From the NCBI GenBank assembly GCA_963677495.2, contig CAXXOU010000003.1, positions 477,872 through 541,871 on the forward strand: 64,000 bases of DNA. The letters run 5' to 3'. Below the pieces are notes generated by a model. That model was given only the letters and a program-made list of their open reading frames with translations. It was not told where the DNA came from and did no database searches. The position numbers were made by a program, and so were the translations under genes. Of this stretch, positions 3,685 through 59,600 are shown one piece after another. Every line of letters starts with the position of its first letter. Positions within the stretch are counted from its first letter, which is position 1. Source of the DNA: Candidatus Cloacimonadales bacterium (lineage in GTDB: Bacteria; Cloacimonadota; Cloacimonadia; Cloacimonadales; JAFGVF01).

Positions 3685-4747
3685 ACCTATCTTGGAAATC
3701 GGGTTTAACTGTCATCACTTTGAAGCTTTCAGGATAGTTTTCAATGAACCACTCTGTAAAAGAAGTTACATCTATCTTGTCGTTCATGAACTGCCTTGCT
3801 TTACTCTTATATGTATCGAAAAGATTATCTTTTGCTAGTACTGATGAAAGTTTATTCATAACACCTTCCGAGCTAGTGAAATTATAACATAAGTCATATT
3901 TCTCAAGATCCTGACAATATGATCTTTCAAGAGTATTAATATAGAATGAAGCCGTTCCAAGAACTCCGGCCTCCATAGCCATTGTAGCACCTTCTCCTAC
4001 AAATACTTCTGCAAAATATAGTGCATCATGCATCATTTGTGGAGGGATTTTTATCATGAAAGGTTTAAACTTATCTGGTAGTTCTGTTTCTCCAGAGATG
4101 AATACTTTATATCCTTCATCAAGAAGCTTGTTCAACACATCTTCTTTCAATTCACTTGTCATACCACTCTGACCTTCATCATGAGTTGCATTCCAAGAAA
4201 CAAATCTTAGGATCGAATATCTTGTGCCTTCAGTAATACCTAAGTACTTGAATATATTTTTATTAGGTTTAAAATAGTTGGGACTTAGATAAGCTATCTC
4301 ATGGTGTCCTCGATACCTAATCTGTTTTTTGGGATATTCAAACGGAAAAACATCAGAAGTCAAAATTGCCTTCGTAAATGGTAAGTAAAGTCTAACTTGT
4401 TCCCAGTTACCGGTGTCTTCAAAGGCAATATGGGGTTTTCTAAGTATAGCTGCCACCCATGCTGCATATGGAGATCCATGACTCATAAACAAGTCTGCTT
4501 TAAATCTTCTTGCTTTTCTTAGCATTTGATATGTAAACCTGAACAATCCCTTAATCTTGTCCATTTTAGTAGCTCTATGCTCGCCAAAAGATGTGAAATC
4601 AAAACCTGCGGCAGTTAGAAGTTCAATCTCGAACTCTTTTTGTCTTGCTGTAAACAAAACCTTATGCCCTTTATTTTGCATATTTAAAGCAAAATTTCTA
4701 AACAAGTGCACATGACCGGGATGCCCAATATCAATTAGTATTCTCAT
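3671..4747 (-). CDS. DUF354-like GT-B fold protein
   Basis: MRILIDIGHPGHVHLFR start, FEDT, LRFVSWNATHD, GEGATMAMEAGVLG. Confidence 0.8.
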   Translation of the reverse strand: MRILIDIGHPGHVHLFRNFALNMQNKGHKVLFTARQKEFEIELLTAAGFDFTSFGEHRATKMDKIKGLFRFTYQMLRKARRFKADLFMSHGSPYAAWVAAILRKPHIAFEDTGNWEQVRLYLPFTKAILTSDVFPFEYPKKQIRYRGHHEIAYLSPNYFKPNKNIFKYLGITEGTRYSILRFVSWNATHDEGQSGMTSELKEDVLNKLLDEGYKVFISGETELPDKFKPFMIKIPPQMMHDALYFAEVFVGEGATMAMEAGVLGTASFYINTLERSYCQDLEKYDLCYNFTSSEGVMNKLSSVLAKDNLFDTYKSKARQFMNDKIDVTSFTEWFIENYPESFKVMTVKPDFQDRFVNE

Positions 4748-36669: not shown

Positions 36670-38982
36670 CTAAAACTCTATGTTCAACCCAAGGAATGGG
36701 AGGAATGGGAACATTGTTGTGTCTTCATATTCAGTACTAAACACACCATTAATATCAGCTGTATAGTTTCTATACCAAGTGTTTTCGTGATTAGTAGCAT
36801 TTATCACTTCAATATATGGTTCAATACTCCATTTCTTCATCTGCCATTTGAGTTTCATGTTTAAATCAAGACGGAAATAATCAGGTAATCTTACTCTATC
36901 AGCATAGCTATAAAGGAAGTGCAACTCTTCTCCATCAGTAAATACTCTTTCAGGTACACTATATGGTTGACCGGTATAATAGGAAAGGTTCATACCAAAC
37001 TTGAACTCAGCACCAAGAACCTCTTTTCCTGTCATTTCTGTATAGTTAAGGTTCTCAACAAGGTTTACCTGATGTGATCTGTCATAACGTGGATAGTATC
37101 TCTGATAACTACCATCTGTAGGGTCGCTATTAAACCCATCCATCTTTCTTTTGGTAATACCGAACGTATAAGCAACAAATCCCTGGATACCATTCCAATC
37201 ATTACGCAATTGAAGGTCGGCCCCAAAAGAATCACCGTCACCTTGATGGAAGGCATTTGACATTGTCATTACAGAGTTACTCCAAGTAGCATCAGTAGCC
37301 ATATCATACTCCATAATCTCCTCATAGGTCTTATAATAACCTTCAGTCTCAAACGCTATAGCATCGGATATCTGATGTTTATAACCAAGTATGAAGTGAT
37401 TTGATGCAGAAGGATTTACCGTATTATCAATAGGGAACCATAGATCAAGCGGGGAACTCTCATCAGCTGAAGCTAAAGCTAAATATTGATAATATCTACC
37501 TGTACTAAAGTATACATTACTGTTAAAATCCAGTTGTCTTCGAATTGAAAAGCGAGGAGAAATATTAAAACTGTCACTATCCTTAGATGAAGGAAGTGAG
37601 ATATCCATATTTCTATAATAGTTTAATCTCAAACCGGGTTCGAAAGTCCAGAAGTTCTCAGTAGTATAATTGTGATGATAGAAAACAGAGTTAATTATCG
37701 ATTTGCTATCAATAAAAGGCATTCCATCTTCATCATATTGCTCATCTGAATCAGTTTTGAAAAGGATACCCATGTATTTTGATTCAACACCATATTCTGA
37801 TGTGTGTTTATCATTGAATCTTTGACTTATAGAGCCTTTAAAAGTAACATCATCGATGTAGTTACTTCTTAAGAATAATAATGAACCATCATTAGTATAA
37901 TCAAGTGTTGATTCGAAATGACTATGAGATAAGACAAAATGTCCAAACACACCCGGATTAAAGATATGTGTCCATTGTCCTGTATAAGCAGAATTACCCC
38001 AAGAGATGAGGAAATCACCCCCGATATCCATAGTTAAGTTATCTTTTCCAGTATAGAAACTCACGCTTGCTTTATCACTATTGGAAATGTCAAAGTTAAC
38101 TTTCCCTTGTCCATCATAAAAGTAGTAATCAGGTATCTCATCAAAGAACGATTCTACAGCTTCAAGATACGTTCTTCTGAATGAACCCATCCATGAACCT
38201 TTCAATTTACCAATCTTCCATGGACCCTCAAGAGTTGTACTAGCACTTATCATGCTAACTTTTGCAGTACCATGAAACTCTTTTCTGTTACCATCTTTGT
38301 TAGTAATGTTAAGCACTGATGAAAGTCTACCACCATGAACAGCAGGATAACCACCTTTTAACAGCTCAACAGTATCAACTGCATCTGCATTGAATGTACT
38401 GAATACACCACCAAAATGGGCGGGATTATAAATATCAGTGTTATCAAGCTTAATAAGGTTCTGATCAGGTGAACCTCCACGTACATAAAGTCCACTTGAG
38501 AAATCTGAAACAGGAGTCACACCCGGAAGTGCCATTAAAGACCTCATCAGGTCAGATTCAGCGACTTGCGGAAGTGCTGCAAGTTCAGTTGCAGGTTGGA
38601 ATATTCTCCCAACTTTAATCTCTTTAGTGTTAATATCTGTAGTGATTTCACCAATAACTTGGATACCCTCAACTTTCACAGAGTTCTTGTCCATATCGAT
38701 TCTAAGTTCAATATTCTTGTTCTTATCTTCGATATTAATCTCTTGTAAAACAGTCTTATAAGAGATTTGAGAGAACTGTAAGACTCTCTTACCTCTATTT
38801 GCAAATGACAAGGAGAAATAACCCTGCCTATTAGTTTGTGTACCCATCGAGGACTTTCGAACTATGATATTTGCATATCTTATTGGTTCTCCTGTCGATG
38901 AGTCATAAATATATCCACTTACTATAGCTGAGTGTAGTAACCCCCAAGCAGCTAAAGCAAGTATAAGGATGATCCGTTTCAT
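36670..38982 (-). CDS. TonB-dependent receptor with N-terminal carboxypeptidase-regulatory-like domain
   Basis: Signal peptide; VSGYIYDSSTGEPIRYANI; plug LPGV..YVRGGSPDQNL..KGGYPAVHGGRLSSVL; RLPDYFRLD; terminal Phe. Confidence 0.92.
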   Translation of the reverse strand: MKRIILILALAAWGLLHSAIVSGYIYDSSTGEPIRYANIIVRKSSMGTQTNRQGYFSLSFANRGKRVLQFSQISYKTVLQEINIEDKNKNIELRIDMDKNSVKVEGIQVIGEITTDINTKEIKVGRIFQPATELAALPQVAESDLMRSLMALPGVTPVSDFSSGLYVRGGSPDQNLIKLDNTDIYNPAHFGGVFSTFNADAVDTVELLKGGYPAVHGGRLSSVLNITNKDGNRKEFHGTAKVSMISASTTLEGPWKIGKLKGSWMGSFRRTYLEAVESFFDEIPDYYFYDGQGKVNFDISNSDKASVSFYTGKDNLTMDIGGDFLISWGNSAYTGQWTHIFNPGVFGHFVLSHSHFESTLDYTNDGSLLFLRSNYIDDVTFKGSISQRFNDKHTSEYGVESKYMGILFKTDSDEQYDEDGMPFIDSKSIINSVFYHHNYTTENFWTFEPGLRLNYYRNMDISLPSSKDSDSFNISPRFSIRRQLDFNSNVYFSTGRYYQYLALASADESSPLDLWFPIDNTVNPSASNHFILGYKHQISDAIAFETEGYYKTYEEIMEYDMATDATWSNSVMTMSNAFHQGDGDSFGADLQLRNDWNGIQGFVAYTFGITKRKMDGFNSDPTDGSYQRYYPRYDRSHQVNLVENLNYTEMTGKEVLGAEFKFGMNLSYYTGQPYSVPERVFTDGEELHFLYSYADRVRLPDYFRLDLNMKLKWQMKKWSIEPYIEVINATNHENTWYRNYTADINGVFSTEYEDTTMFPFLPFLGLNIEF

Positions 38983-39685: not shown

Positions 39686-41440
39686 TTACTTAAGAAGAAG
39701 CATCTTCTTTGTCTTAGTATATGAGCCCTTCTTGAGTTTGTAGAAGTATATTCCTGAAGGCATAGGGTTATTGTTATCATCATCCCCTTTCCAGTCAATC
39801 GAGTGTCTACCATCACCCATAAGGCTTGATTTAATTGTCTTTACCTTCTGTCCGAGAAGATTGTATACAGATAAATCAACCTCTCCTGCTTCTTTTAATG
39901 TAAATGATATTGTTGTTTTTGGGTTGAACGGATTAGGGTAATTACTCATCTTAATATCAGGAACAGTTTGCACAAACTCGTCAGCACTATCAATTGGCGC
40001 AGTTTTAACCGGTACAACCAGAACTCCATGCTCATGAATAACTTTGATGCGAGAATAAAGGTAAGGAATACGCACCGGAACAGCAATCCAAAGCTCCAGT
40101 TGAATTGTCTCCCCAAATGGAAGAAGGTATGGTAACTCTGTGGTTGATGAACAAGCCATACCTCCGAAGCAATCTTCAACTTCGATTGCTTCAATAAGTA
40201 ATCCATCTAGTTCTGTGTCATTAAAGATAGATATTGGTTCTGGATTACATAGTTCTTCAAAAGTATTTATAATCACTTCATCCGGGAAAGCTCCAACATA
40301 GTGTCGATGGTTTATATCCACAACAGCACCTTCGCAAACAGTCATGCCATACTGCATTTCATCGGGGACTAAATACCAGCCATCTGAACTACCTCCCCAA
40401 CCATAATTGATATGAAAGTAACCATCTGAGTTATAACCATCAAGCACAACATTATGACCACTATCCCAAGCAGGAGTAACCACAGCGTAGTGTACCGGTT
40501 TTCCTTCCATCATATTGTCTATCATGCGTTGCATTAAGTCTGGAGAAGATTCATCAAGAAGTTCCATACCTTCAAAGTTCATTCTTTCGTAAGCAGTCAT
40601 TGCTTGTCCTACACCAAAAGTACCTGACCCACCTGAATTATACACCTGCTCAGCTAAAACACCACATGCGAATACAAGCGATGCTTTGTCTTCATCTGTT
40701 AAATCATGCCCAAATCTCATTCTATATGATAATGAGTCTAGATAAGCATTTAATTGAGGAAAGGAAAGGAAATCGTATGCAAGGTAATCATCATCAATCT
40801 GGTAAGAGTTTCCTCCATAATTGTGGTAATAATCATCCTCATCAGTGAACTCTTTTTCGTTTACTGACGCATGATAGTTTACTATCTGTGCCATTGCAAC
40901 TGAAGGGCAACCTGCATAACTTCTACTATTGGAAACTAAATCCATGGGACAAAACATGCGATATACACCTGTTTGTGACCATTGAGTTTGCACCCAACCA
41001 CCGGTTGATGTAAGATATGATGGAGGCCAATATTCAACTTCCGGTTCATCTCTATCAGATAAAAGGCTATCCCACTTAAAATTACGTAAATACAATTCTC
41101 TTTCCGGCAAGCTGTAAACGTTCTGTAATCTATATGAAATATCTGTAGTAACAAGCTCATGGAACTTCTGTTCATCAGCGTTATTGGTAGTTGAATAAGC
41201 TATTATCGGAGGTAAGTTCTTATTAGCAGTTGTAACAATATAACCCTGAGGTTTTAGATTAAAGATAGTGCCAATTGATTGCCCACTAACAGTAATACTT
41301 TCCTCTGAAAAGATAGAATAACCAGAAGATACCTTCTGCAACTGTTTTTCTGCGACAACTCGCATCTCAATTTCAGACACTGTAACAGCAGTAAGCCCTA
41401 ATGTAATAAACAGAAAAAGAATAATCCATACTTTAGTCAT
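39686..41440 (-). CDS. Secreted C10 (streptopain/SpeB-like) cysteine protease with prodomain and C-terminal FlgD-Ig/T9SS-type-A-like sorting domain
   Basis: Signal peptide; I69-like prodomain (GYIVTTAN..LPPIIAYS); catalytic AGCPSVAMAQI, GHNVVLDGY, FHINYGWGG; C-terminal NYPNPFNPKTTISF..VYNLLGQKV..SGIYFY..KKMLLLK. Likely start at 41440 after GAGGAG. Confidence 0.9.
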   Translation of the reverse strand: MTKVWIILFLFITLGLTAVTVSEIEMRVVAEKQLQKVSSGYSIFSEESITVSGQSIGTIFNLKPQGYIVTTANKNLPPIIAYSTTNNADEQKFHELVTTDISYRLQNVYSLPERELYLRNFKWDSLLSDRDEPEVEYWPPSYLTSTGGWVQTQWSQTGVYRMFCPMDLVSNSRSYAGCPSVAMAQIVNYHASVNEKEFTDEDDYYHNYGGNSYQIDDDYLAYDFLSFPQLNAYLDSLSYRMRFGHDLTDEDKASLVFACGVLAEQVYNSGGSGTFGVGQAMTAYERMNFEGMELLDESSPDLMQRMIDNMMEGKPVHYAVVTPAWDSGHNVVLDGYNSDGYFHINYGWGGSSDGWYLVPDEMQYGMTVCEGAVVDINHRHYVGAFPDEVIINTFEELCNPEPISIFNDTELDGLLIEAIEVEDCFGGMACSSTTELPYLLPFGETIQLELWIAVPVRIPYLYSRIKVIHEHGVLVVPVKTAPIDSADEFVQTVPDIKMSNYPNPFNPKTTISFTLKEAGEVDLSVYNLLGQKVKTIKSSLMGDGRHSIDWKGDDDNNNPMPSGIYFYKLKKGSYTKTKKMLLLK

Positions 41441-41621
41441 GATACTGACTCCTCTCATAGTTTTCTCCATGTTTATTCCAATAACTACTAATAATTAAAT
41501 TATTGTCAATAAAGAATCTAACATTTAAAATTCTATCAACTAAAAACGCGATATGGGTTTAGTGATGCCCAAAGCAATCTTAACAAAAAAAATAGTACAC
41601 TTATGAATTGTGATTTTTAAC

Positions 41622-41691: not shown

Positions 41692-44600
41692 TTATTCTCT
41701 GCTACTCCTTAATCCGGAGTTAGAAGAGCTACTGAATGTTGGGAGTGCTAAAACTCCTCTAGTTTGTGTTAGATATTCGTTTAGAGCTCTTAAATCACCC
41801 ACAAAACCAATCAACTTATAATATTTCATACTATGTCTTACATTTTGATCAGTATATGTTGTTAACAATCCGCTATCTCCAAGATATCTAAACTCACTAT
41901 CCGGGCTGTCACTCCAGTAGATTAGATAATGATTTACAGTAACTGGATTACCATAATAGTCATTAACAATTGGATCCCAGTTCAATATTATATTGTTGCC
42001 TGCTACGAACGCAGTAAAATTCTGAGGAGCAGGGAGAGGTAACTGGCTTACTAGTACATGATTTTCGTGATAGACAGTATCTATAAGTGTATCTGATGCA
42101 ACGATAAGCCTCACTGAGTAAACTCCAGAATTAGCATAAGTGTATGTTACATCCTGCTGTGTAGAAGTTCCTCCATCACCAAAGTCCCAGCTAATTGTAA
42201 CAACTTCAGGAATATGACCATGAATATCAGCATGGTAGACTGAAGGTGTACCTTGAATTATTGTCTGATCATCCACGATAATGCTAACTTCATGATGATA
42301 ATAAATACCACCCATATCAAGTCTTGTACCATCAGGGTCAGAGTCATCCATATCCCCATCATAATATGTCCATCCGTCACCATCAGAATCAATATCACCG
42401 GCATCAATCAATGGACTTTGATAGTACAAGCTGTAATCTCCGTTAGCTGCATCAGTGAACATAGGATCTACGTTCAAGTTTCCAATCCCTGCAACAGGTG
42501 TAGTAGTATTGGAGTCACAATAACGAGCGGTAATGATAGCATTTGTAATATCATAAGGTTGTGCAATTGGGCTGTCGCTCCAAATAATTGAGTTATCCAA
42601 ATTTACCGAAACATTTTGAGCTTCCAGTGCATGTGGATAATTATCAATCGTGAACTTACTGACATCAAGCTCAGCATTATTAACAACCTTAACTGCCGAA
42701 ATCATTTGCGATGCCATATCAGAGGTTGCAATCACTACATTTTCATGCATCTCAGATAGAGTTGAGTTAAGATCAAAGCCAACTGCATTATTAGTTAAGA
42801 GGTTAGAAGATATTGTTGAGTTATTAGTTCCGCGAACTTTAACACCTGTGTGGAATCCATCAATTTTGCAACCTTCAATTAAGGCATCTACATTGTTACC
42901 TAAATCAAGTCCGATGCCGGTTAAACGAGATGAGTTCTCACTATTCCTAATTCTAACATTAGTTAACGTTGGAGTAGCACGATTAGAAGTTCTATTATCA
43001 AACACAAGGCCATAATCAATACCTGAAAGTGTATCACTATCGCAATAGATTCTAGGTATGTTTCTGAGATAGAAGCCATAGCTATTAGGACGGACACTGT
43101 TCTCGCTGTTTCGAACTCGAACATTGGTCAAAGTTGGAACTTCCCTTCCTAAGTCTCCATCTAACAAGTAAACGAGACCATTACCGGTATTCTCAGAGAT
43201 GTAATCCCTTACCTGAAGGTTGACTCTACCTGATGCTTTCAAACCGAATACAGTCTCATCTAATACACGAAGTGGTATTGGACGGGAAGAGTTTTCACTA
43301 TTTCTCACTCTTATGTTTGTAAGTACCGGAGTAGTCATATTTGCGGAGTTATCCGTATACAGTTCGATTCCTTGCGGATAGTTCTCTATCTCACAATCGT
43401 CTATCTCAAAACTGCAACTACCTGAAATTGAGATACCTTTTGTAGCAACACGACTACTATTTTCACTATTCCGAACCCGTACATTTGTAAGTGTTGGCAC
43501 ATCGAAACTGGAGTCTACATCATATAATTCAAGGCCAATACTCATATCTTCAATTTCAAGACCATCAATAGTTGGTGATAATGAACCGGTAACAACTAAA
43601 CCCTTAGTATCTGGTCTTACGCTGTTTTCACTGTTTCTAACCCGGACATTAGTAAGTGTTGGAGTTGCGGTAGTAGCCGAATCGTTTGTCAGAAGAATAC
43701 CTGACTCATAATCTTCTACAAGTAAGCTATCGATAGTTGCAGAGACAGAGCCGGAAAGAATGAATCCTTCTCCATTGTTTCTTGATGAGTTCTCACTATT
43801 ACGAATTCGAACGTTAGTCAAGGTTGGTGTAGTCTCAATAGTTCCTAATTGTTCATAGTAGACACCGGTATTGAAGTTATCAGTTTCTACATCGATAAGA
43901 CTAGTTGAGATTGAGCCTGAAACATAGATACCGTATGTATCAGTTCTGACACTATTCTCACTGTTCCTGACTCTTACATTTGTTAAAGTTGGTGTTGCAA
44001 GTGTTGCTGAATCATTATCCATCAATATTGCAGTACCATAACCTTCAATATCAAGTCCTGTAATATTTGCAGATGAGAACCCGTTAATTAACAGTCCTTC
44101 TCTGAGATTACGTACACTGTTTTCACTGTTTCTAATTCTAACATTGGTAAGGGTTGGCACTTGATCATCATCATCCAAGAGTAAACCTGTTTCATAATCT
44201 ATTATTTCCAGACTATCAACGATAGCTGCCCCGGAGATGTGACAACCTGTACCGTCCAGCGATGGATTATCAATGGTAATATTATTTAGTGATGGAGAGT
44301 ATCCGGCCGAAGTATCCAGCACCAGACCTGTACCATATCCACTTACTTCAATATAGGATAAAATAGGAGATGTTGCTCCTGAAATAGATAATCCGGTACC
44401 GGTTGAAAGTGACCTGTTCAATGTATCTGGTGCTGCAAGGAAAACCATATCACTGAATTCAGGGCTTCCACCCGTAATAGTTAAAGGAGTATCCGCATTT
44501 AGTACAATACAACCCGACATATCTGAGCTATCAGAACCATCCATAAACATGAAACCACCCCAATTAGTGTCTAATTCTGTTGTGAAGGTAGCTCCATCTG

Positions 44601-47600
44601 CTATCAATTCTCCTTCGATGAGGAATGGGTCGTCAGTGAAAACGTTCACTACAACTCCGGGTTCTACTTGTAAACGTCCAGTAGCAGGCACTGATACTTG
44701 TCCAAACACATTGTATGGTGATGATGCCGGAGACCAAGTTTCATCAATTATATCCCCACCCGGTACACCTGTACCATTAACTACAATTGGTGTGCTACTG
44801 GTATGAGAATATGCCGTTCCACCAGGCTCTGATCTAACTGTCAGAGTAACATAATAATCACCACTAATATTGTAAGTATGATTTGGATGCTGAGTAAACA
44901 GATCAGGAGTTCCGTCGGATTCGAAATCCCATTCCCAAACAGTTACATTACCTTCAGTAAGATCAGTAAAGTATATCTCTTCACCACCCCATGGAGCTAA
45001 GTTATCAACTGTAAATTGTGGAACTAATGCATCGAGAACTTCTATAGATAAAGTATCTGATGTTACAGAGCGTCCTTGATTGTCACTCACGTTAACTGTA
45101 ACAACTTCAACCCCACTCCAACTTGAATCAGCACTAATTGTGACATCAGTACCTATTACATTAAAGTGAGTATGAATATTGTCTGTAAATGTAAGTGTTA
45201 GCTCATCATCTGTCTGATCAGAATCATAGATATAATCAGCAAAATCGACTACTGAGCTTGTGTTCATCAAGATAGTAATGTCATCAGGTAGTGAAAGGAT
45301 TGGAGCCTCATTAACAGGCCTAATTCTAACAGATATCGTATCTGTGACAGCTGCATTATCGTCATCTCTACATGTAAACACTATCTGTTCTATGCCTTGC
45401 CAACTATAAGTATTAATAGTGACATATCCATTCTGAATAATCACTGAAGAATGACTTTGTCCTGTTGCATAGAAGCGTAATGGATCATTGTCTGCATCAT
45501 TAAAATAGTTGTTTAGATTTAAGTCATTATTAGATGAGTTAACAACTATCTCCATATCCGGAATATTACTAATCAAGCTAGGTGGAGTATTAAGGACATG
45601 CACATAATTCTCATAAACAGCAGTATTTGAAATACCATTTTCATTCGTGACAGTAAGCGAAACATCATAATATCCTTTTGAAAGATACTGATAGGAAGGA
45701 TTTTGTTCGTTACTGTCTATTATGCCATCAGAATCAAAATCCCACTCCCAGAGAACAATAGTTGAATTATCAATAGTGGTTGATGAATCAGTAAACTGAA
45801 CCAAATGAGGTGCCGGACCGGATGGATTATCAACACTAAATTGAGCAATTACAGGACGGTCAATAACCTCAAGATGTGCCTGTAGGTTAAGAGTCTCATT
45901 TCCTGGTTCGTTTGTTAAGAAAGTCAACTGTCCAAGGTAATGACCTCCTCCCATTTGGCCTGCATCAGCAGTGTATCTAAGATAACTGCTACCTGCCGGT
46001 GGGATTGTCATCGAGGTCTGCTCAAGATTAAGCCATGCCAGGTTATTTTTGATAATGTTATAGATATATAAGTTACCCTGTCCGTTATTACTTATAAGGA
46101 GTGAATCTACATTTGACATACCAAGATATACAGTTTTTGAGATGTTGAGAGGGTTGAATCCAATCTGAGGTGGATATGAAGCCTCTGCAGTAAGTGAAAC
46201 TGTTACAACCGGAACTGCCGGATCATTAGATGTAAAAGTAAGCTGTCCAGTATTAACTCCCTCATTAATAGCAGTAAATGCAATTGATAAGGTCTGGCTT
46301 TGCTCGACAGGTACTGAAATAGTTCTATCACGCATATTATTCATTAACTGTGAATTAAACGGTTGCACATCTAAATAAGAATAACCATCTCCTGAAACCT
46401 GAATGTTATCAAGAATAAGTGGAGCATATCCGTTGTTATAGATAACAGCATTTCTTGTTTCAGTAACACCGATAAAACAATTCTGGAAATCAACATTCTG
46501 ATTTACAAGCATAACTTGTGGAGCATAGGCATCGACTTCTACATTTATAGCTTCTACGTCTTCATCACTGCCTTTAGCAGGGTCATAAAGAGTTATCTCT
46601 ATCTGATACGTCCCCGGATTAGCATCTGGTGGTATGTTGAGAGTTGATTGGAGAGGCAAAGACGAATTAAAATCAAGAGTTTGAGGTATTATTGTCTGAT
46701 CCAGTACTGTATCACCCGATAATAATCGAGAATAAACAATAACATCTTGAGTGTTGAGATTACTACTTAATTCATAACTAACTGCAACACTACTTCCTTG
46801 ATATACATCTACAGATTCCAAGTTTAGATTATTAATCATAGCATTTGGTTGAAGACTATTAAGTATCAATAATCCTGAATCAATCATAGAACTGCCTGCA
46901 TCCTGGGAAGTGACATCCAAGTCAATTCTAACAGTATTTGGAGTGCTCGGACTTGTGTTTAAAATTGACGGATCTAAATTGAAATAGGAAGTATTCCAAT
47001 TATCTGGTGAGACTTTTAAATCACCAAGATATATGTTATTTAAATAAACCTGAGATACTTCATTATTATCAATATCTTTAGCCCTTATTCTTAATTGAGC
47101 AGAAGTAACAGAAGGCTCATCAATAAAGATATTGAATTCAACCGGTGCTAAAGCAGATTGCTCGTTGATATTTATATCCAAGTCATTATCAGCTATACCC
47201 GTCATTAAATTGTTTTCATTATCGTTAGTAGTGAAATTGTAGCCACCATAGCTAAGCAATAAAGGTATATCAATTATTCTATTATCCGGTACATTAGTTC
47301 TTAGCCTAAACTCTGCATTATGAAGACCGTAATCAAGCCCAATAGTATTTACGGTTAGTGTTATATCAGCTGAGTTATTAGGAGATATAGCCAAAGAATC
47401 CGGTGAAACAGAAAGCCATGGAACTCTCGAATCCAACTCCTCAGTAAGAATATACAAATCACTCAACCCATTGTTCGTAACAGATAGGAAGTTGTTCTGT
47501 ATATTTTCGTCCGTAATAAACCATTCAAAGGAAGTTTGGTCTAAACTTATTGAAGGTACATATTGGCCTGTACCACTTAGGGCAATTACCTTTTCTGTCT

Positions 47601-50600
47601 CAGTCAAGTCATTAGAATGAATCGTCATAGTTGCTTGCACATGCAGTTCATCAATCGGCGAGAAGAGTACATTCACTACACTATTTTGACCTGTTTCCAG
47701 GATTGTGTTCTCTAAAACATAATCAAAGAGATTATTATCAAAGGTAATATCAGAAATGTAAAGAGTACCAATACCGATATTGGAGATATTCAATGCTAAC
47801 TCACCTGTATCACCAACATTTATTAGTCCAAAATCAACTGTCTCTGAACTCACTATCATGTCAGCATCAGGTTCGAAACCTATACCGGATAAAGCAATTT
47901 CAAATAAAGGATTATCTTGGTCATTCGTATAAATCGTTAGGACATCATTAGCTTCACCTGAGTTTACTGGTTGGAATAGAACCCATAACGTACCAATATC
48001 ACTAGGCTGTATATTTAGGGAAGTGACTTCTGGAGAGAATACAGAAGTTTCTGTACTTATCGGATTTAAGCTAAGATCAAGAAGTCCGGTGTTTTCTATC
48101 TCTAAACCTACTCTTCCTGTATCTCCAATATTCACAGTACCTAAGACGATTTCATTGACTGTAATGTTAGCTTCAGGACGGGCAATAATTCCTGATCCCG
48201 TAAGATTAACTGTTATTGAAGGATTATCCGGGATATTGGTTTCTATTAAGAGTAGACCCGTATATTCAATTTCATTATTAGGGTTAAACGTTATTGTTAA
48301 CTGATCTGTCTGACCCGGTTCAAGAACCATGTTAGCATCAGAGACTGTAAATTCAGGCAAATCACACTGAATATTACTTAATACAAGTGCATCTGTACCT
48401 TCATTACTAATTTCAAGTTGTCGTTCTTCAGGAGTGATTGTAGTAACTAATCCAAAATCCAGTGATGTACTCGAAAGAGCTATATCAGGGATGCCGGTCA
48501 CAAACATTGACACCGGGATTGTTAAAACTGAATTTTGTGGATCATTACTTGTAATATAAACATTGCCATTATATTGTCCACCATTCAGATGATTACTATT
48601 CAAAGCAATTTCTACTGATTCACTTGAACCTGATTCCACAATACCTGAATAAGGTTGAGCACTTAACCAGAAACCATCATCAACTTTGTAGATTGGGCCG
48701 TCATAATCGCAGAAGAAGAAGTCTCTTCCATCAAAGGCAAGAGCATCACACTTTCTATCATCATATAGATCTTCCCGCTCTACGATATGAGCAGTTGAAC
48801 CACTTAATTCAAGTCTAATTATTTCCGCTGTCGGATAGATTATATTGCCGGCTCCATCATCAACTGCAGGGAAGAAATATGCCCAAAGATGATTATCCAG
48901 ATAAGATGGAACATAAATTATCTGTGTTAATAGTCCTTGTTCAGGAATGATATATTCTGACAGAATGTTTCCTTGATAATCCAAAGTTCTGATCACAGGA
49001 TTAATATCCCCTGCACTCACAGCATAGAAATCTGTACCATTGAAAGTAATCGATGAGAAGTCTGAGAATCCTGTATCAAAGCTGTTCCCTGTACTCATCA
49101 AACTGGCTGCATCATAACTGTAAACATATCCACTCTGATTTGATATCCAGATATCGGAACCATCATAAGTTAAACTATATGCTTCATCATGAACAGGATA
49201 TGAGTACCATATAGCTTGAGTCTCATTCCATTTCAAAAGCTGATCATTCTCTCTATCTAAAATATACAACTCATCGTTAATCCATGCCATACCACTACTA
49301 TTAGCAGGTACTGATTGAGGTAAAACATCATACAATTCAGCTAAAGTTCTTTGAGAAGGATTGAAATCAATCCTATCTGTTATACTATCTACATTGATAA
49401 CCTCTTCAGGAGCATAGTCCCCTAAATCATCTCTATTTCCATCTCTGAACTGTGGTTGAACTCTTCTTGAGGTATCTTTATCAAGCTGAATCTGATAACT
49501 TAATGGTGTCCCACCAATATTTTCAATCACTAAATCATATAGAGCGACTTCTGTATCGTGTAAGGCTGCCTGGAATGAAGTTTGGTTTATTTGTATAACT
49601 GGTTCACCAACAGCATTGGCAGTTATGAGAATTGTAATCATAGAATGCTCAGGGTCATTTGAGTTAAACTGAATATTACCACTATATTGTCCGGAAGCAT
49701 TAGCAGTAAACATAAACTCGATTGATTGTTGACTCCAAGGGCTGATATTCAACAATTGCTGCTGGAATTGAATCTCAGGTAAGTCAGAACTGAAGTTTGT
49801 TAGACTTAGGTCAGCATATCCGTTATTACTAACAACAATACTTCCTAATACCTGCTCTCCGGTATAAACAGTTTCTAAATCATAAGCACTTGGATAAACA
49901 ACTTCAGGATCAGCAGAAACAGATAGTTGAACTGGAATTACTATATACCTGTTGTTAGGGTCATTGGTTGTTATATTGATGTTAGCGAAATAGTTCCCGG
50001 CAAATAAAGAAGTTGCATCTATTATGAAATCAATATTTTCACTGGTATCTGCATTAACAACGCCACTGTAGTCACTATAAGATAACCAGCTAAACTCATT
50101 AATACCATCATCTACTCTATGTATGAATGTGTTGTATAGGCCAGCAACATACAAATCCCTGCCATCATGACAGATACTATATGATGTTCCCCAATCCGGT
50201 ACATTAATCAATTGCTGATGTTGAATTGTATTGCCAATTCTTAATCTTCTCAGCTGATTATTATCACTATTTAAGGCCCAGAGTTGACCTGTTTCATGTG
50301 ATTCAACCCAAGTTAAGGCATTAACAGCACCCGAGAATGAACGGTTATAAGTCTCAAGTACTGTACCATCAGATGATACTTTGTATACTTGAGCATAAGG
50401 GATTGAACTATCTGTTATATAAAGATTAGTACCATCACAACAGAAAGCCGGGTTTGTCATCAAATCATTTGAGAAAGTTCCCAACAATGTATCGTTTAAA
50501 TCGAAATGATAGAAAGTACCACTACTTGAACCAATCCAGTAACCTTCATTTGACTTAGCGATTCCCCAAGGAGCTAAATGGATATCTATGGTTTCAAGAA

Positions 50601-53600
50601 CCTGTTCTGTATCCTTATCATACTTAACGAGCTGACTGTCATCATAATCTATCAGGTAGAAAGTTCCAAATATTTCAGCCATTCCATGAATATTCTGTGG
50701 TATATTGGCATATTCTGCTTCGACATTGTTTCTACTACTTGTTTCTTCAATTTCGATGTAGTATTCTAATTGTGTTCCCTGAGTAATTGCATTACTCACT
50801 TGAATTGTTTCAATACCTGTAGTACCATTCTGCATATTTAATGCTAATTGAGCAGGTTGCACATTAGCACTTGGAGGAAGAACACCCTCACCTAAAAGGC
50901 CTATCTGATAATCTGAAGGTGATAAAGAAGTTGAAACAATCAAATCAGTATTATAAACAATATCACTATCCGGAGTGAAACTCACAATAACTCTCTCAGA
51001 ACTACCCGGAACAATTGTTGTAGTTGTTATTGAAGGCGTAAACGCAGGCAATGGACTTGATATGTTATAAATTTCAAGATTGTCAGTGCCTGTATTGATA
51101 ATACTAAAACTTAATGTATCAGTAATAGCAGTAACTACTGTGCCAAAATCAAGATTATCAGGAGTTAAGGCAATATTTGCTGTGCCAGTAACAACAAGAT
51201 TAATTGGTAGAAAAACTTCACTATTAATCGGATCATTGCTTTCAAACATTATATTAGCAGTGTAATCACCAGTAATCATACTGGCAGTATTAACTATAAG
51301 AACTAGGGTCTCATTAGTTGATTGTGTCGTATTGCCTTGAGGTAAGGAAGATGTAAGCCACTCAGGTGTATCAGTTAGAGTTGATCTTTCCAATTCATAA
51401 CTTCCAAACAATACTCCATCGTTTGCATATTGAGTAGTATCATCTAGTCCGGCATCCATGCTCCAATAACCATTTAATCCTGTTTCATCACCAATAAGCC
51501 GGGTATGTGAGTACATGAATATCTCTGTTTCTGTTCTTGCGTCATCCCAGACTCGGAAATCATCAACACTTCCATTAAGTCTATACCATCTTCTGTCGAT
51601 AGGAAGGAGTTTGCCAACGACCCAAGGATCGGTATTACCATTGTAGTTACTTAAAGTACTTTCAGCAACAAGCTCTTGATTTAAATAAAAATGCACTTGA
51701 TTAGCACTATATACTACAGAAGCCTGATACCAGATATGGTGCTCTATACAATCCGGTATTGTTAGATGTAACAAATCATTTGGAGCTCTCATCATTAAGT
51801 GTAATTCTTTCTTATCGTCTCCACTATCTAAGCCATTAGTATATATACCAAAGAAACCATCACTACTTTCATCAGACTTACTTATTATGTACTGAATACC
51901 TGTTCCGTTTGAAGTTATCACTCCTGTAGGTGATTGAGAGTAATCACTATCAACTTTAAACCATGTTTCTACAGTGAACTCCCCATCAAATAACTGAATT
52001 TCACTTGAGTTATCTATAACTCCATATTGCGAGTCACCCGGATTACCGTCTAACTGTAAAGCATTACCCATGTTTTGATGCATCTTCCAAATCAGGTCTG
52101 ATAAACCTGTATTCTGCACTTGAAGATTTTCTGTATGTGAAACACCGGACTGCAGGTAAAGATTATAAGCTTGGTTAGACAATTGCATTTCAGGTGCTAA
52201 TATACCGGTACCAACCATATTAATTGCTAGTGTAGGAGCATTAGGAGCATTAGACGTTATGTTTAACTGACCGTTGAACTGACCAGAAGACTGAGGTGCA
52301 AATGTCACTTCTAAAGTATGAGTTTCTCCAGTTTCAAGAGATGCTGTTCCTGCCTGAATAATGAAACTATCTTCAGTTGATTCCCAATTGAAATCAAGAG
52401 TTGCTGGACCGCTGTTAGTTATAATTACATCTTTAGTCTCCGGTATAACATTGAAGACATCTCCGAATTCTAAAGCGTCAATAGAGCTTTCCAGATAAGG
52501 GATATTCGCTATAGCTTCTCCATAAAGATTTAAAACAATAAATGATTCATCATCGTCATTTGAAGCAATAGTAAGGAAACCGTCATGATTGCCTACTTCT
52601 TGAGGTAAGAAGGTTACTGTAATTAACTGCTCGTTTCCAGGTAGTATATCTGCACTATTGGGAACAACTGTGTACTCAGGAATGTTAGTTCCTATGGATG
52701 TAACACTCAGAGTATTCAAACCTGAGTTAGCAATTGTAAATTCCCGAACAACAGGAACATTATCAGGTGTTACACCAAAATCTATCTCAGAAATACTGAC
52801 ATCAATATCAGGAACATGTGGTTCCACTTCAAGTGGTGTTACCAAATAATCATGGCACTTACCTAAAGAATCAAGGACATAAATATTTACGAAAGCAGTC
52901 CCTATTTCTGCAGTTATCGGTATTCCAAGATTCACTGTAATAGCATCATCATTAGAACCATAAACATGCTCAAAATCTACTGAGTTCGAAAGAGCTGTTC
53001 CACTCTGTGTTAACGTTGTATTGATATTTGCTGCAAAGACACTATTACTTGTATCTATCTCTTCGATAACTGCAACAGAACTACCGGGGTAGTATCTTGA
53101 TGAATCAAGATTTACGGACCTAATATGGGCATCACCTTGTTCATTGTTGATAATCAATTGTCCACTATCAATAAATAGGTTATCTCCCATCATATCAACA
53201 TCAAGTTCAATTTTTACAATGTTTATTCCATCAGCACTCAGAATATCCGGAGATATTGGGAAGTTGTTTATCGATGTAGTTACATCAAGTCCTGTTAATA
53301 CACCAACTTGATTTTCATTTAGGTAAACTATACACCTTTCTCCAAGGGCACTATCGATATCTCGTCCCCTAATAATCAAATCAACTGTATTTACTTGTTC
53401 ATTTGGATCACTGTAGATAGCAAATTCAACAGGCTGTATTGCTGAACCATGGCCTAAAGACACACTTAAGTCATTATCTGGACTAAACTCACCTTGGTTG
53501 TTCATATTATCAAAGTTAGTGTAATTCAAATACTCTTTACGAACAGTAACATTAAAATCAAATATAGGATTATCAGGATCGTTGGTCATGAAAGTAACTG

Positions 53601-56600
53601 TGCCATTATTAACTCCCTGCACCATCAACAAGGTATTTAATGTGATTGGAAGTTGATAAGTTTCATTCATATCAACAACTATCTCATCAGTAGGTACTGT
53701 TAGCCAAGTTTGATTAGTACTTAGTGTGAAGCTCAATTCCGTTCCACCCTCATTTTCTATTGCAAGATATTCAATACTTTCAGAGCTTCCAACAACAAGT
53801 ACGTCCAATTCATCCGGTTGCACGAATATTGAAGGTGGTGTTACAACTGAACCTGTAACCGGAATATTGATTGTTTCGCTTCCAACAACATTCGTATTGA
53901 ATGTTATATTGAAATCACGATCTCCAAGAACTTGAACTGTTCCCGTTAAGTTTATATCTTCAGAACTTAGCGGTTGAATAGTCACTCCATCTATCGAAGT
54001 GATTAGTTCTGCATCTTCAGCCAAAATATTACTTATTACTAAATCAGCAAAACTAGTATTAGATACTGTAATTGTTTCATTCACCAATGTTCCGGAATAC
54101 AACTCTCCTAAATCTATGGATTGAGGAGTGTAAGAAATAGAGGGGATAAAATCTCCAGGTAACTCTATTGCTCCCATATCTGGTGCACTTCCAAAATAGT
54201 GCTGAGGAGAAAGATCAACAAACACTTCGTCATCTAACATCAAATATGCTGTTCCTGCATTAATACATGGTGACAAGTATGAGAGAGAAAAATCACCCAT
54301 CGCTATATCATTAAATTGTGGATTCCCTTCAATACAGTTAGCGTCAAAGGAAACAGTTGAGCCATTATCATTCTCAATAGCAGTAGGAGCTTGCGAAATC
54401 AATGAATAATAGAAGTCAAGTGTACTTGGTGAACCGGTAAATCCAACTTCAGAAGGTCCATTAGAATGGAAGATACTATTTACAAATTTGCCTTCTAATG
54501 CACCATTTACATAGAAACAGTTTCCACCCATTGATGACATGTTTTCTGCTATTGTACAGAAGTTAGTAGTTATATTACTATCTCCCATTGAATAGAATCC
54601 ACCACCTCTTCCTGCGTTGTTATTGAAGATTTGACAATACTCCATCTCAATATTTGATTCTTCTGAATAAATACCTGCTCCATTATTACTTTGATTCTCT
54701 CGAATCATACAATTCTTCAGAAGAACATCACTTTGATAACAATATAATCCACCTCCGTAACTAGCATTACCATAACTTATTTCAAAACCATTTATCTCAA
54801 CTTGCCCTGTATTGCTACTAATACTAACACAATGATTTGCGAAGTTACCATTTAGAACAGTTGTTTCAATGTATGTTGTATCGTTAGTTGTTTCAAATAG
54901 CGATGTAAGCTTAATAGATTTATTATTTATAGTTAGATTCTCATTGTATACTCCGGGATGAACCGATATTGTATCACCATCAATAGATGCAACAATAGCA
55001 TCTTGTATTGTTGCAAAGTCCAGTGGAACTATTATCGTCATTGGGACACGAGTAGTAGTAAAACTCCAAATTGGACAGTTTGTTGCATCGTCTCTAGTAT
55101 TGTTACTATCAAAATTAACACTGCTCAAAGAACTAATTCGAGAACCGGAAATGCTTCCAGATGTTCTAACATCATCAATATCTGTAGGTACAACTTGCCA
55201 GTAATAAGTACTACTGTTCTGTAGCTGCGTAGGTACCTGACACGTATGAACTCCATCACCATTATAAGAAACTGAAATGAAGGAAACATCTGAGAAATCA
55301 TTATCTGTATCAAAATAAACTTTGAACCTGACCGGATATGTATAACCAAGTTCATGAATATATTCCCATGACAACTCATTTAAACCAATTGGAACACCAT
55401 CTTCTCCATCCAATGGTATCGGATTTATGGCTATGTATGGTTCATTATTCGGTTGAGGTTCATGGTTATCAGTTTCGATAGTAATCAGATAAGATGTCTC
55501 ACCTTCCCTTGAGTTTCGAATCAGCCTTGAGTTACTTACTTCCGGTTGATTACTTGGTCTTGTGACCCTTAAGTAATAGAATCCTGCATCGGTAATGTTA
55601 GTTTCAATCCAAGGATTTGTACCATCATAGCTATTATCATCTGATGCAATATATGACATTTCATCAACATATATACCACCATTGTTATAAGGACCATAAA
55701 GATGCATCATGAGATCTACATTTGAATCTAAAATGTGCTCTGTATGCATACTTAATGTTGCTGGAGCTGCTTGCCAGAACAGATACCAATCAACGTCTGT
55801 TGATGGTTCCATCTTTGCTGGTATCTCATCAAAATCTAACTGAATCTCCGCTGCTGTATATGAAACTTCTCCATCATCAAAGAGATATTGAAGCTGGATA
55901 TTAGTAAATGCTGTCGGAGAGTAAGCATTATTAGTATAGTTAGCTCTAACTGCCCACTTATAAACATCAGGTTCTTGTATGTTCCAATCCATATCAACAT
56001 ACGTTGTGTCAGTTACTGTTGCTAACTCTTCCCATGAGTTTGAATCGTTCTCTTCTCCAGACAACAAACGATATACAGTATAATTAAGTAAAGAACGTGG
56101 ATTACTAGATGAAACTAAGGGATGAACTGGTTCAAATGGATTTCTGTATCTGCTTTGTTGTGTTATTCTAGTATGATCTACTTTCTCCTTTGATTTACTC
56201 CCACTGCTGAAATCACTATTATTAAAAGCAGTTCTACCAGTTGTATTTCCTACAGAAACATTATCTATGAATGTAGAATACCACAGTCCATCATCTGTTG
56301 GCCCATCATAGAAGTGCCAAGCAAGTTGGGTTGATTGTCCGGCATAGGGGCTTAGATCTAATATTACCGGTTCGGTATAATGATTATCTGCTTCAGGAAG
56401 TAAAGATGCATCCCATAGAGATGCCCAATTTGCTCCACCATCTGTCGTTACTTTAACTTCATAATGATCTTGGTTCGTTGAGCCATAGTGTCCATAAAAG
56501 TCAAACGTAAGATTAGCATTCTCAGGGCATGTAAACACATAGGTCTTCAACCACTCATCTTGATTAGTGTAAGCCCATTGTACACCTGTCTGATATGAAC

Positions 56601-59600
56601 CTTCTGTTGGAACTACAGGTGGTGAATAAGCAACTGTTCCAAACTGTAAGAATGTGCTTCCATCTGGATTCGTGTCTTGTACACTCCATCCTGTTGGAGG
56701 AAACTCATTTTCAAAGCCTTGTACATATCCTGAGACATTTCCGGCTCCACCTTGATATGGTAAGTTCCATGATATACGAACATTATTTCCTTCTACCTCA
56801 GAAATAGCATTTGTTGCAGGATAAGTTATCTCTTGCACTGTTATCTGTCCTAAATCAAGATCTGTGACTCCAACATCTGCAATAACGCTTGTGCTATAGT
56901 ACCCATCAGCACTCGCTACACAACTATATTGGGTTTCAACCTGCACAGGTAGTGTAAAGTATCCCTGATTATCAGTATCAACTGTATAGTTAAAATCACC
57001 AAACAGTTCTACTAAACCTACTATGCCGGAGGATGTATCGGATGCAATAATCTGCCCTGATAGCTGCACAATATCCTCTGTTTCAAATGACCATATTGGA
57101 CAGTTCACTGCATTCCCAAACTGGTTATAAGGAACTACTTGCCAATAGTAGGTTGTGTCCATTTGTAAGTTGTTAAAATCATGATAAAGATTAGTCTCAG
57201 CATCTGACATATAGAATACATTTGTAGGTGGGTTATCAGTACCTAAACTAACATAATAGCCTGCAGAAAAAGCTGAACTATTCCACTCCAAAGCACCATT
57301 AATCGGTACATGATCTTGACCATCCATAGGTTGAACAAATGATGTAAATAATGGAGGTGATGTGCTTAGGTCAAACTCATATACTTCTATATCATCTATT
57401 ATCTGAGGAGTATTATATGACCTTCCGTGTGCAACCAAAGCTTGATTTGTGTACAAAGATACATCAACGCTATTTGTACTTGTCCAAACATGACTTCCAT
57501 TTCGATAGAATGAAACTGTGTTATCTGAGTTTATCTGAACTCTGTAACTAATCCAGATATCATTAAACTCATTGTCTGTCCAAAGTTCAACATAATATTC
57601 GTCTGGAATAAAGTACCTTACCTCCAAGTCATCAGTTGATGGTTGTATCATTATACCAATTAAATCTGCCGGTTGAGAACTTGTTCCATTAAAGTCATCT
57701 GCTATTGTTGACGACCATGCTACAGATAAATTTTGCCAATGAGGATAACTGCTATTACCCTTTCCAACAAATTCAAATGACGGTCTTTCTGTTAAATCAA
57801 AAGTTTGGTAAGTTGTTGCACCACTTTGATAACTACTATCACCATTAGCATCAAAACCGTCAGTTCCGTTAAATCCTTCACCACTTCGTAAAAGTGGTAC
57901 CGGGCTTCCCCATGTCTTCCAAACTACAGGGTCTATATCGTTTTCCCAATCTTCACGGAACATACATCCATCATAGGTTGTAAAACTCCAAATAGGACCA
58001 CTTGTATAATCTCCGTTTGCATCATAAGGAGTAACTTGCCAATAATATGTTGTTAAGGGTTGTAAGTCAGCAAAGGAGTAATTGGTTGAATTTCCATTAT
58101 CATATAGACTAAGGATATCAGCTGGAGGATTATCACTACCAAATGATAACCTATATCCTGTTGCTCCTACAGCTTCATTCCAATCAAGTAAACCCGAGAA
58201 TTGCAAATCAGTTTCACCATCAGTTGGATTGCACGATGGATACCACAACCACTCTTCTAACTGCTCGGGTGAAGCAGCATAGCATAATGCCATATTATCT
58301 ATCACTGGTCCACCAATCTCATTGTTTCTATATTCATGCCCAATTGTACCATCTGCATTCTCGATACCAATACATACGTCTCCAAAAATCGAATCAGAAC
58401 CTGAATCTCCATTAGGATTGTTATAATTCCGATATTGTATTTTTATTCTTCCTGTTGGATATAAAATCAGCTGAACATCAACATATTCTGAAGTATCTCC
58501 ATAATCACACCACTGTAATGCAGTGAAAACAAAATTACCCCAATCATCATTTCCATAAAAATAAGTTGATGGTATAGTCCCTAAATCTAAGTCCATAGCA
58601 AGCAGGGAAATTACATCATTTGGACTAGAGTTATCAGGTATTGTCATATTGCGTTCTTCAGTATAGTTACATGTAGGATTAGAAAACATCACTGTTCCAT
58701 TAGAAGAAATGTAAACACTTGAATACTCATTACCGAAATAGTTAAACGTGAATCCTAAAGGTATTGGAGGATCTGTATATCCTTCATCTGTTGAAGTGTA
58801 TGTACTTGTAGCTATTAAAGCTGGAACTATGCCTGTTGTACTGATATCAATCCAATCATAAGTAGGTTGATACCCTAAGCCATTCCCATTAACTTTACTA
58901 TTAGCAAAGTAGTAGCCACCATAAAGAGTTCCATCACCACCATAGTTCTGGTTAGACCTAACAGTGAAGCTATAACTTGATGCAGGAATAGGACTTTCAC
59001 CATTATCATTATATCCTGTAACATACCAATAATATGTTAACTCATTAACTAATTGGTTAGTTAGTGTATATTCATTCACTAGCCCCAAATTTGTTTGAGT
59101 AAAGTTTGAATTATCATCACTCAAATACAAATAGTACCCTTGTGCCCAATTATCTATACTCCATGAAAATACAGGAAATTCACTCACACCGGTAGCTGTA
59201 TCATTAGGTGTACTCAATGAAATCACATCAGGTAAATTTGCAGTTGTTGAAAAACTCCAAGTCTCGTAACCTATAGCATTACCATTTGAGTTATAGGGAA
59301 TTACTTCCCAATAATATGTTGTATTACCATTTAGATTGTTGACATCAAGTGTTATACCATCATCAATATCATTCAAGTAATAGATATTTGTTGGGGGATT
59401 ATCAGTACCAAGATTGATGTAGTATCCATCAGCATGACTATCTTCATTCCATTCTAATGTTACATCAAAGAATTGATTAACAGCTCCATTACTTGGTGCA
59501 ATATAAGTAACCGGGTTAGGAGGAGAGGAAGTTGTTATAAAGCTCCAAATTGGACAATTAACAGCATCACCATTCACATTGTACGGTACTATTTGCCAGT

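Follow-up and report, generated by a model that had tools for sequence, protein, structure and literature searches.

Why does a giant bacterial protein repeat one short sequence eight times, almost without change, while the sequence between the copies drifts apart, and does anything in the cell read it? The question is raised by a 64,000-nucleotide stretch of a Candidatus Cloacimonadales genome (assembly GCA_963677495.2, contig CAXXOU010000003.1, positions 477,872 to 541,871; hereafter the window), in which a gene for a 6,704-amino-acid (aa) protein holds eight copies of a 16-aa motif. We find that this motif is a lineage-specific barcode, i.e. it is nearly invariant within a gene but differs between lineages. 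Genomic patterns further indicate that a second gene, which codes for a STAND protein with two cyclase domains and tetratricopeptide repeats (TPRs), is probably the co-evolving reader of the barcode. The features of the locus are as follows (window coordinates, strand; aa numbers refer to the carrier).

41692..61806 (-): gene of the 6,704-aa multidomain barcode carrier (MAM, Ig/FN3-like, ASH/HYDIN-type Ig, LamG, PKD, beta-helix, PKD, C-terminal tail)
61735..61806 (-): predicted Sec signal peptide (basic start and hydrophobic core, by eye)
42307..44796 (-): right-handed parallel beta-helix domain; its 55-aa repeat is an acidic rung plus a motif rung
44110..44157 (-): motif copy 1, aa 5884
43945..43992 (-): motif copy 2, aa 5939
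43780..43827 (-): motif copy 3, aa 5994
43615..43662 (-): motif copy 4, aa 6049
43450..43497 (-): motif copy 5, aa 6104
43282..43329 (-): motif copy 6, aa 6160, with two conservative changes
43090..43137 (-): motif copy 7, aa 6224
42925..42972 (-): motif copy 8, aa 6279

A lineage-specific barcode inside a predicted beta-helix

An earlier sequence-only reading had reported eight recurring 16-aa motifs between 42925 and 44157, and all eight are present there, at aa 5884-6294, with the consensus P[TV]LTN[VI]R[IV]RNSENS[VS]R. Their spacing is 55, 55, 55, 55, 56, 64, and 55 aa, not the roughly 60 aa then given. With a mean pairwise identity of 0.90 the copies are indeed near-identical, and the earlier motif pattern is corrected in that copy 6 reads PVLTNIRVR; by contrast, the first five spacers are only 0.29 identical (ungapped), in line with the strong divergence ascribed to them. 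Synonymous codons also vary among the copies of this gene, as had been noticed, with an identity of 0.40 vs. 0.38 expected from the gene's codon usage, and exact runs longer than 10 nt are found in only 5 of 28 copy pairs (longest 19 nt). Given such unlike spacers, the proposed selection at the protein level is supported over recent duplication; the latter is excluded as the origin of the copies, because the spacers are also orthologous across species. A DNA element or a template of the kind used by diversity-generating retroelements was rejected too, as synonymous sites are free while adenines at first and second positions are fixed. The motif is absent from every other open reading frame (ORF) of the genome (regular expression and a hidden Markov model of 463 homologous motifs; 10,690 ORFs), so an eight-copy array is far beyond chance. 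The copies hold 24 of the 141 Arg of the carrier, which has 876 Asp plus Glu.

The barcode behavior emerges when carriers are compared across the phylum, for which we used 232 Cloacimonadota genomes (labeled G###; G000, 3.4 Mb, is the genome of the window). Over 463 motifs from 76 distinct genes, motif positions that vary reach an identity of 0.82-0.97 within a gene vs. 0.21-0.67 when different genes are compared, and beyond positions -3 to +13 (the Leu being position 0) within- and between-gene values hardly differ. When further loci are included, 61 different heptapeptides follow the strand in 93 genes (e.g. NSENSVR, HTTNTSR, NTTSPVR, and NSGSASR). Homogenization extends to residues that face the core, i.e. 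position 3 (0.94 within vs. 0.48 between genes) and position 5 (0.88 vs. 0.50). The final Arg has a within-gene conservation of 0.98, and the next residue 0.16.

New versions sweep through all copies of a gene. Within one genus, TN at motif positions 1-2 is replaced by IN in G059 (6/7 copies), TY in G063 (7/7), and VN in G064 (7/7), all with orthologous spacers, and a fourth species of the genus displays GN in two copies. Between G156 and G150 a Q/E difference is found in all four matched copies, with the DNA differing at only 3-6 of 60 bases; here 47 of 58 synonymous codons remain copy-specific, and cross-copy identity is 0.47. In G115 and G116, one Ser column is encoded by AGC in three copies and by TCN in five, in both genomes. 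Among 13 genomes with at least two carrier loci, nine use one barcode (one of these possibly through a split gene; the two loci of G105 may be one split gene) and four have differing barcodes. Paralogues less than 25% alike outside the motif have a motif identity of 0.83 within a genome (12 pairs) vs. 0.55 across genomes (526 pairs), and this sharing of a genome's barcode by paralogues of low similarity points to a reader that acts in trans.

The beta-helix proposed earlier is borne out by an AlphaFold2 model from a 55-sequence alignment, which gives a confident right-handed helix (predicted local distance difference test, pLDDT, 89.8; predicted TM-score, pTM, 0.83) with rungs of the xLxNxxI type. 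In the model, a long strand (TLTNVRIR) lies on every second rung, followed by a ten-residue loop; the suggestion that every second coil projects a loop is therefore right about the alternate rungs, while the first nine motif residues are strand. The loop is exposed, rich in Ser, Thr, and Asn, and of lower confidence (pLDDT 72-80). From the alternation of residues along the strand, Leu0, Val3, and Ile/Val5 are predicted to face the core. Above the two strand Arg, the intermediate rungs of this gene carry acidic residues in 4/8 and 7/8 cases (55% and 71% in 391 homologous rungs), so the motif Arg would sit, judging from register, in an alternating Arg/acid column; the stacked Arg/Asn/Ser ladder once envisaged does not agree with this. 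The same acidic rungs, together with a net acidic repeat region (36 R+K vs. 52 D+E), also speak against a polyanion-binding track.

That the repeat belongs to no named family is upheld, as no curated model covers its 55 aa: Pfam offers only the generic NosD at aa 6228-6348, over the last two copies, NCBIfam reaches 33 bits vs. a cut-off of 300, and PADLOC gives nothing. Atlas leads for a beta-helix stand at 0.87-0.89. The fold itself is shared with right-handed beta-helix adhesins (Fap2, tailspikes, and antigen 43), but Foldseek matches are generic beta-helices with at most 13% identity, TM-scores under 0.3, and a best E of 9.5e-4. An N-glycosylation sequon was rejected as the role of the motif, being missing from several barcodes. 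In many carriers, Asp-Ser/Thr-hydrophobic triplets recur in the acidic rungs; these resemble the O-glycosylation sequon of Bacteroidota.

The motif is found throughout Cloacimonadota, with the repeat matched in 92 of 232 genomes, one of which (G170, without the motif) is probably a false positive. Outside the phylum, a scan of GTDB with a paired-motif DNA pattern returned 68 loci, i.e. 64 titled as Cloacimonadota or as members of the phylum, two labeled 'uncultured bacterium', and two (Vibrio and Bacilli) without an in-frame motif. The same pattern matched no viral contig; metagenomes gave 33 untitled matches, a length-limited protein search gave six, and a related-locus search with a single carrier protein as query gave none. 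Genes hold 2-23 copies, in carrier frames of about 900-7,600 aa among relatives. At the upper end, locus L192 (G122:C9) has 23 copies with 0.99 identity in a 6,262-aa frame, and a STAND gene lies convergent downstream.

A STAND cyclase that covaries with the barcode

The candidate reader is encoded elsewhere in the same genome:

G000:C1:864137-867868 (+), outside the window: cyclase-cyclase-STAND-TPR gene, 1,244 aa, the sole match in the genome at a threshold of E<=1e-40

Genes of this kind (about 1,250 aa) neighbor the carrier in 13 of 20 neighborhoods, and other non-carrier clusters recur in at most two loci. In five homologues, Pfam identifies two class III cyclase domains (Guanylate_cyc), AAA_16, and TPRs (TPR_12 and TPR_MalT). 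The metal Asp pair, the Lys, the Asn/Arg, and Walker A and B are all kept in the alignment, and the C-terminal TPRs are conserved, acidic, and Asn-rich; the cyclase is predicted to be intact, and the protein looks cytoplasmic, with no signal peptide by eye.

Over the 232 genomes, repeat and STAND occur together in 85 and are both missing in 135, with seven genomes having the repeat only and five the STAND only. Nine of these 12 discordant genomes are less than 90% complete, and G079 and G086 stay discordant. Both genes are lacking in G113 (a complete genome of the same genus), G003, G016, G030, and G025, though relatives in the genus or family have both. In 50 of 79 genomes, no more than 10 kb separates the two genes. 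Copy numbers also agree, with two STAND candidates scored per genome and counts thus being lower bounds: each of the four two-barcode genomes has a pair of STANDs, and one STAND is found for several carriers in G022, G006, G012, G002, G077, and G021.

Covariation points to the C-terminal TPRs. In 63 inferred barcode-STAND pairs, barcode similarity has a Spearman correlation of 0.43 with the C-terminal TPRs, compared with 0.22 for the cyclase, 0.08 for the NTPase, and 0.10 for the N-terminal TPRs, and the first value is 0.49 after N-terminal similarity is removed. For 48 groove positions, predicted from the period of the TPRs and a conserved ladder of Asn and chosen after the mutual information (MI) result had been seen, the correlation is 0.46, higher than in any of 60 random TPR sets (mean 0.29, maximum 0.43). 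By MI, motif positions -3 and -1 pair with STAND residues 1178, 1211, 1215, 1218, and 1219, which share a helix face in the last TPRs, and motif position 7 with residues 1005-1055 (counted from the upstream stop; minus 15 gives the numbering from Met1). This suggests antiparallel binding, with the start of the motif at the last TPRs.

Single residues follow the same trend. A polar position 3 goes with E1204 and K1208 in 8 of 11 pairs vs. none of the 52 others, with three origins of each (FastTree, non-TPR part). A divergent pair has lost Asn2 and Arg6 from the motif and has D1131N, D1135Q, H1168N, N1172L, and N1175T in the STAND, keeping both Arg4 and E1164. The unlinked STAND of G066:C9 has the groove signature common to STANDs with similar barcodes. 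The nearest natural TPRs with a solved structure are those of LGN/GPSM2/Pins (E about 1e-47), and NprR and RapF are weak profile matches. TPRs of the LGN type bind long extended peptides.

Relatives of the pair take other forms as well. In G108, G109, and G110, a STAND 24% identical directly follows a helix protein with the invariant divergent motif PTTPTMDVIRIYYSPDSWK; this divergent carrier class (L255:4253-7213, L256:4170-7325, and L257:5037-8066) has long Asp runs and whole repeats that were recently duplicated, each carrier lying beside its divergent STAND. In G103, a carrier beside a second STAND (L237:4486-10182) has decayed motif copies unlike each other and the STAND groove is altered, i.e. 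this system is possibly losing its match. In the window genome (L174:5667-13627, G000:C1), the STAND gene comes after a secreted beta-helix protein of 685 aa that lacks the motif and after a short, internally repeated spacer, and before a dnaA-like gene (by eye). No motif copy occurs in the STANDs or singly elsewhere, which led us to reject a receptor-effector pairing of the amyloid type.

Around the carrier gene itself, a C10 peptidase with a Spi inhibitor prodomain and a tail of type IX secretion system/FlgD type lies downstream (window 39686-41470, -), followed by a TonB-dependent receptor (36670-38982, -). Neither recurs near other carriers, and the peptidase was rejected as a partner for not being a recurrent neighbor in 20 loci. 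A long glycan biosynthesis cluster occupies window 342-30170 (-), with glycosyltransferases, a Wzx-like flippase, GDP-sugar enzymes, two ATP-grasp proteins, WbqC, a phosphatidylserine decarboxylase-like protein, and a PMT_2-like protein. Within the Arg-poor carrier, short polar inserts that bear Arg lie between domains near aa 1880-1905, 2090-2102, 3690, 4110-4127, and 5155, and look like Arg-specific processing loops. Secreted-type proteins of the genome are poor in Lys (1.5% vs. 6.9%).

How the barcode might be read

We give about an even chance to a cytoplasmic route, in which the STAND would read the unfolded precursor, most likely at stalled export, and switch on its cyclase. The TPR groove would bind the motif as an extended peptide, acidic TPR residues would hold the motif Arg, and several copies would give avidity. 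Binding, most likely on export stall or misfolding, would then start cyclic-nucleotide synthesis, so that the pair would serve as an export and folding sentinel, possibly as a guard against attack. As folding hides half of the residues that are read, the folded, exported protein would be silent; likewise, a reader sensitive to both faces of the strand must meet it outside the folded helix. If one receptor reads all copies, these copies and the paralogues it serves would change together. Three proteins of the genome that bind cyclic nucleoside monophosphates could receive the signal, i.e. C4:1438312-1439430 (with a histidine kinase), C4:1327706-1328998 (with a SurE-like domain), and C3:433113-433619 (unfused, next to a channel-like gene; the fusions were labeled by eye).

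Several points weigh against a STAND reader. All support for binding is genomic, and binding, trigger, product, and output are inferred from it. Linkage inflates the co-occurrence, and kin genomes are not independent. G079 (93% complete) has the motif without a STAND match and G086 (94%) a STAND without the motif; the two genes are apart or on different contigs in 29 of 79 genomes, that of the window included; G130 has two STANDs and one barcode carrier found, and the STAND count of G013 is ambiguous. As for covariation, the choice of groove positions followed the MI result, MI matches as a whole show no enrichment in TPR columns (33 of the top 110 for 288 columns, the NTPase having 33 for 342), and E1204 with K1208 is missing in 3 of the 11 pairs with a polar position 3. 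Codon patterns that favor gene conversion, given below, count in the same direction.

The best surviving alternative keeps the receptor and is, in our view, unlikely: proteases would free the motif outside the cell, and the peptide would re-enter to signal quorum or damage in a kin-specific way, in the manner of RRNPP systems. All evidence for the STAND partner applies to it equally. It would also account for the abrupt end of conservation at the final Arg, and it draws on 18 matches to C25 gingipain-type peptidases in the 3.4-Mb genome, all over cut-off, on the secreted look of carriers with complete N-termini (by eye), and on the pherotype-like differences at positions 1-2 among four species of one genus. 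Repeated-autoinducer phr genes co-evolve with Rap receptors (PMC5199041). However, neither an Opp-type binding protein (PF00496) nor OPT (PF03169) or SbmA (PF05992) was found in the window genome, and among 61 genomes Opp occurs in 3 of 27 with the system and 14 of 34 without. The freed motif would be cut at two further internal Arg, and an upstream Arg is present in the preceding loop for only two of the eight copies here. Among 455 motifs, 26 have Pro directly after the final Arg (3/8 here), so that Pro is not depleted there; with no Arg-context bias in 109 secreted-type proteins, obligatory Arg-X cleavage was rejected. The missing transporters, the rarity of Opp among carriers, and the undepleted Pro together favor cytoplasmic exposure.

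An improbable explanation dispenses with a reader, such that structure would fix the Leu/Asn/Arg scaffold, short-tract gene conversion between the 48-nt stretches, which alone are similar, would homogenize the rest, and the STAND link would be regulatory or historical. The alternating Arg/acid register is consistent with it, as are the codon patterns mentioned above: synonymous identity is higher than codon usage predicts in 70 of 74 genes (0.53 vs. 0.36), adjacent codons show a linkage excess of 4% (3498 vs. 3357±20, 57 genes), and the pooled orthologous signal is nil close to swept sites (up to two codons away; P = 0.57). G120 and G075, whose motif copies are almost the same in DNA, and a Leu codon switch that adjoins a swept codon in G063, also favor conversion. 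By contrast, four-fold sites of the motif follow repeat position in eight close orthologue pairs (0.525 orthologous, 0.433 cross, and 0.455 within), like the spacers (0.50), and 12 independent swept pairs keep orthologous codons (379/746, permutation P = 0.0025). Both Ser codon families are used in 51 of 178 homogeneous Ser columns, and 11 hand-picked closer, non-independent pairs have an orthologous excess at every distance from the swept codon. The carrier gene of the window sits at the synonymous baseline with few exact runs, and neither two STANDs for two barcodes nor groove-specific covariation is predicted without a reader. In our reading, the pattern reflects selection for a match, to which conversion contributes now and then.

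About as improbable is an extracellular role, be it homotypic zippering of kin adhesins, a lineage-specific protease or glycosyltransferase site, or the polyanion track, because, for all that the carrier is large and adhesin-like, the loop exposed, and secreted peptidases numerous in the genome, it leaves the homogenized core-facing residues and the match to a cytoplasmic STAND unexplained, acidic rungs separate the copies in a net acidic region, and the STAND is the sole recurrent neighbor in the 20 loci compared.

Meaning and comparison with known systems

With slightly less than even confidence, we propose a two-gene system of self-surveillance, in which giant surface proteins of Cloacimonadota would carry many copies of a private barcode within a beta-helix, invisible once folded and exported, that is read by a STAND resembling soluble adenylyl cyclase (sAC) and reporting export failure, attack, or kin. 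If true, bacteria would have an NLR-like receptor whose cryptic ligand is self-encoded, and a STAND cyclase of sAC type would have a defined peptide activator. The question of which ligands act on STAND-regulated soluble cyclases thereby gains a 17-residue candidate. Some 60 natural receptor-peptide pairs would expose a TPR recognition code, with dozens of cognate and non-cognate pairs as built-in controls, and orthogonal peptide-gated cyclases would be useful tools. Parallel substitution across all motif copies inside a folded domain is an unusual mode of evolution, and an uncultured phylum gains a candidate signaling system. Should binding fail, the finding reduces to an undescribed repeat that is specific to the phylum and evolves in concert. 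We found no paper on the repeat or on its pairing with the STAND ('Cloacimon' with 'adenylate cyclase' returns 0 papers); the STAND may be listed in the clade tables that supplement bioRxiv 10.64898/2026.01.04.697583 or among the source data of PMC7159879, both outside the search.

The system falls outside the RRNPP and FxSxx groups and probably outside the Avs group, and in its workings it comes nearest to RRNPP pairs and to STAND-TPR proteins coupled to peptide processing. Like RRNPP pairs (Rap-Phr, NprR-NprX, and AimR-AimP), it has a precursor with a signal peptide of Sec type (by eye), a TPR protein that looks cytoplasmic and may lie beside it, and a lineage-specific, co-evolving peptide in repeated copies. 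RRNPP criteria include a small propeptide of 10-100 aa and a receptor of 250-500 aa (PMC10075063). Here, the precursor has 900-7,600 aa (6,704 in the window) and the 16-17-mer lies inside a folded beta-helix; the receptor shares the TPRs, but is larger (about 1,250 aa) and carries cyclase and STAND domains as well; the diderm phylum mostly lacks Opp, with no such permease found in the window genome; and adjacency is limited to the fraction of genomes given above, the genes being unlinked in that of the window.

A STAND-TPR gene coupled to a diverging peptide is also found in FxSxx-COOH/RxD/HaaT systems and the TOMM kinase-cyclase fusion, and AP-ATPase/TPR genes are tied to fast-diverging peptide precursors, proposed as signal or toxin and sometimes linked to cyclic-nucleotide sensing (PMC7159879). 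NCBIfam models NF041717, TIGR03903, and NF040586 match the STANDs far below cut-off (44/1125, 88/706, and 29/300 bits). Unlike in FxSxx-COOH/HaaT, there is no small precursor here, the ligand being internal, multi-copy, and structural, and zincin peptidases or radical SAM proteins form no recurrent cluster among BLAST-clustered neighbors in 20 loci, no family-targeted scan having been made.

Our protein has the layout of STAND cyclases similar to sAC (ADCY10), with a pair of class III cyclase domains ahead of a P-loop STAND and helices at the C-terminus, and it would probably belong with them to the SWACOS clade. In 12 main-clade sequences, Gly replaces the Thr of the sAC specificity motif, which makes the product of the cyclase uncertain. 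The C-terminal part of sAC is autoinhibitory, and the nucleotides tested had no isoform-specific effect (PMC12802110). Unlike sAC, the present system has a genome-encoded candidate peptide activator.

Avs and NLR-like receptors likewise combine a STAND with a TPR sensor and an N-terminal effector, but here the ligand would be self, not phage, and PADLOC finds only domain-level TPR and PycC matches. The guard model of plant NLRs offers a further comparison for the receptor. A similar logic is known from DegS/sigmaE, in which a PDZ protease senses one conserved tripeptide at the C-termini of unfolded outer-membrane proteins in the periplasm. In both cases a motif hidden in the folded protein would be read when folding or transport fails, whereas here the tag has 16-17 residues, is multi-copy and lineage-specific, and would act through a cytoplasmic cyclase.

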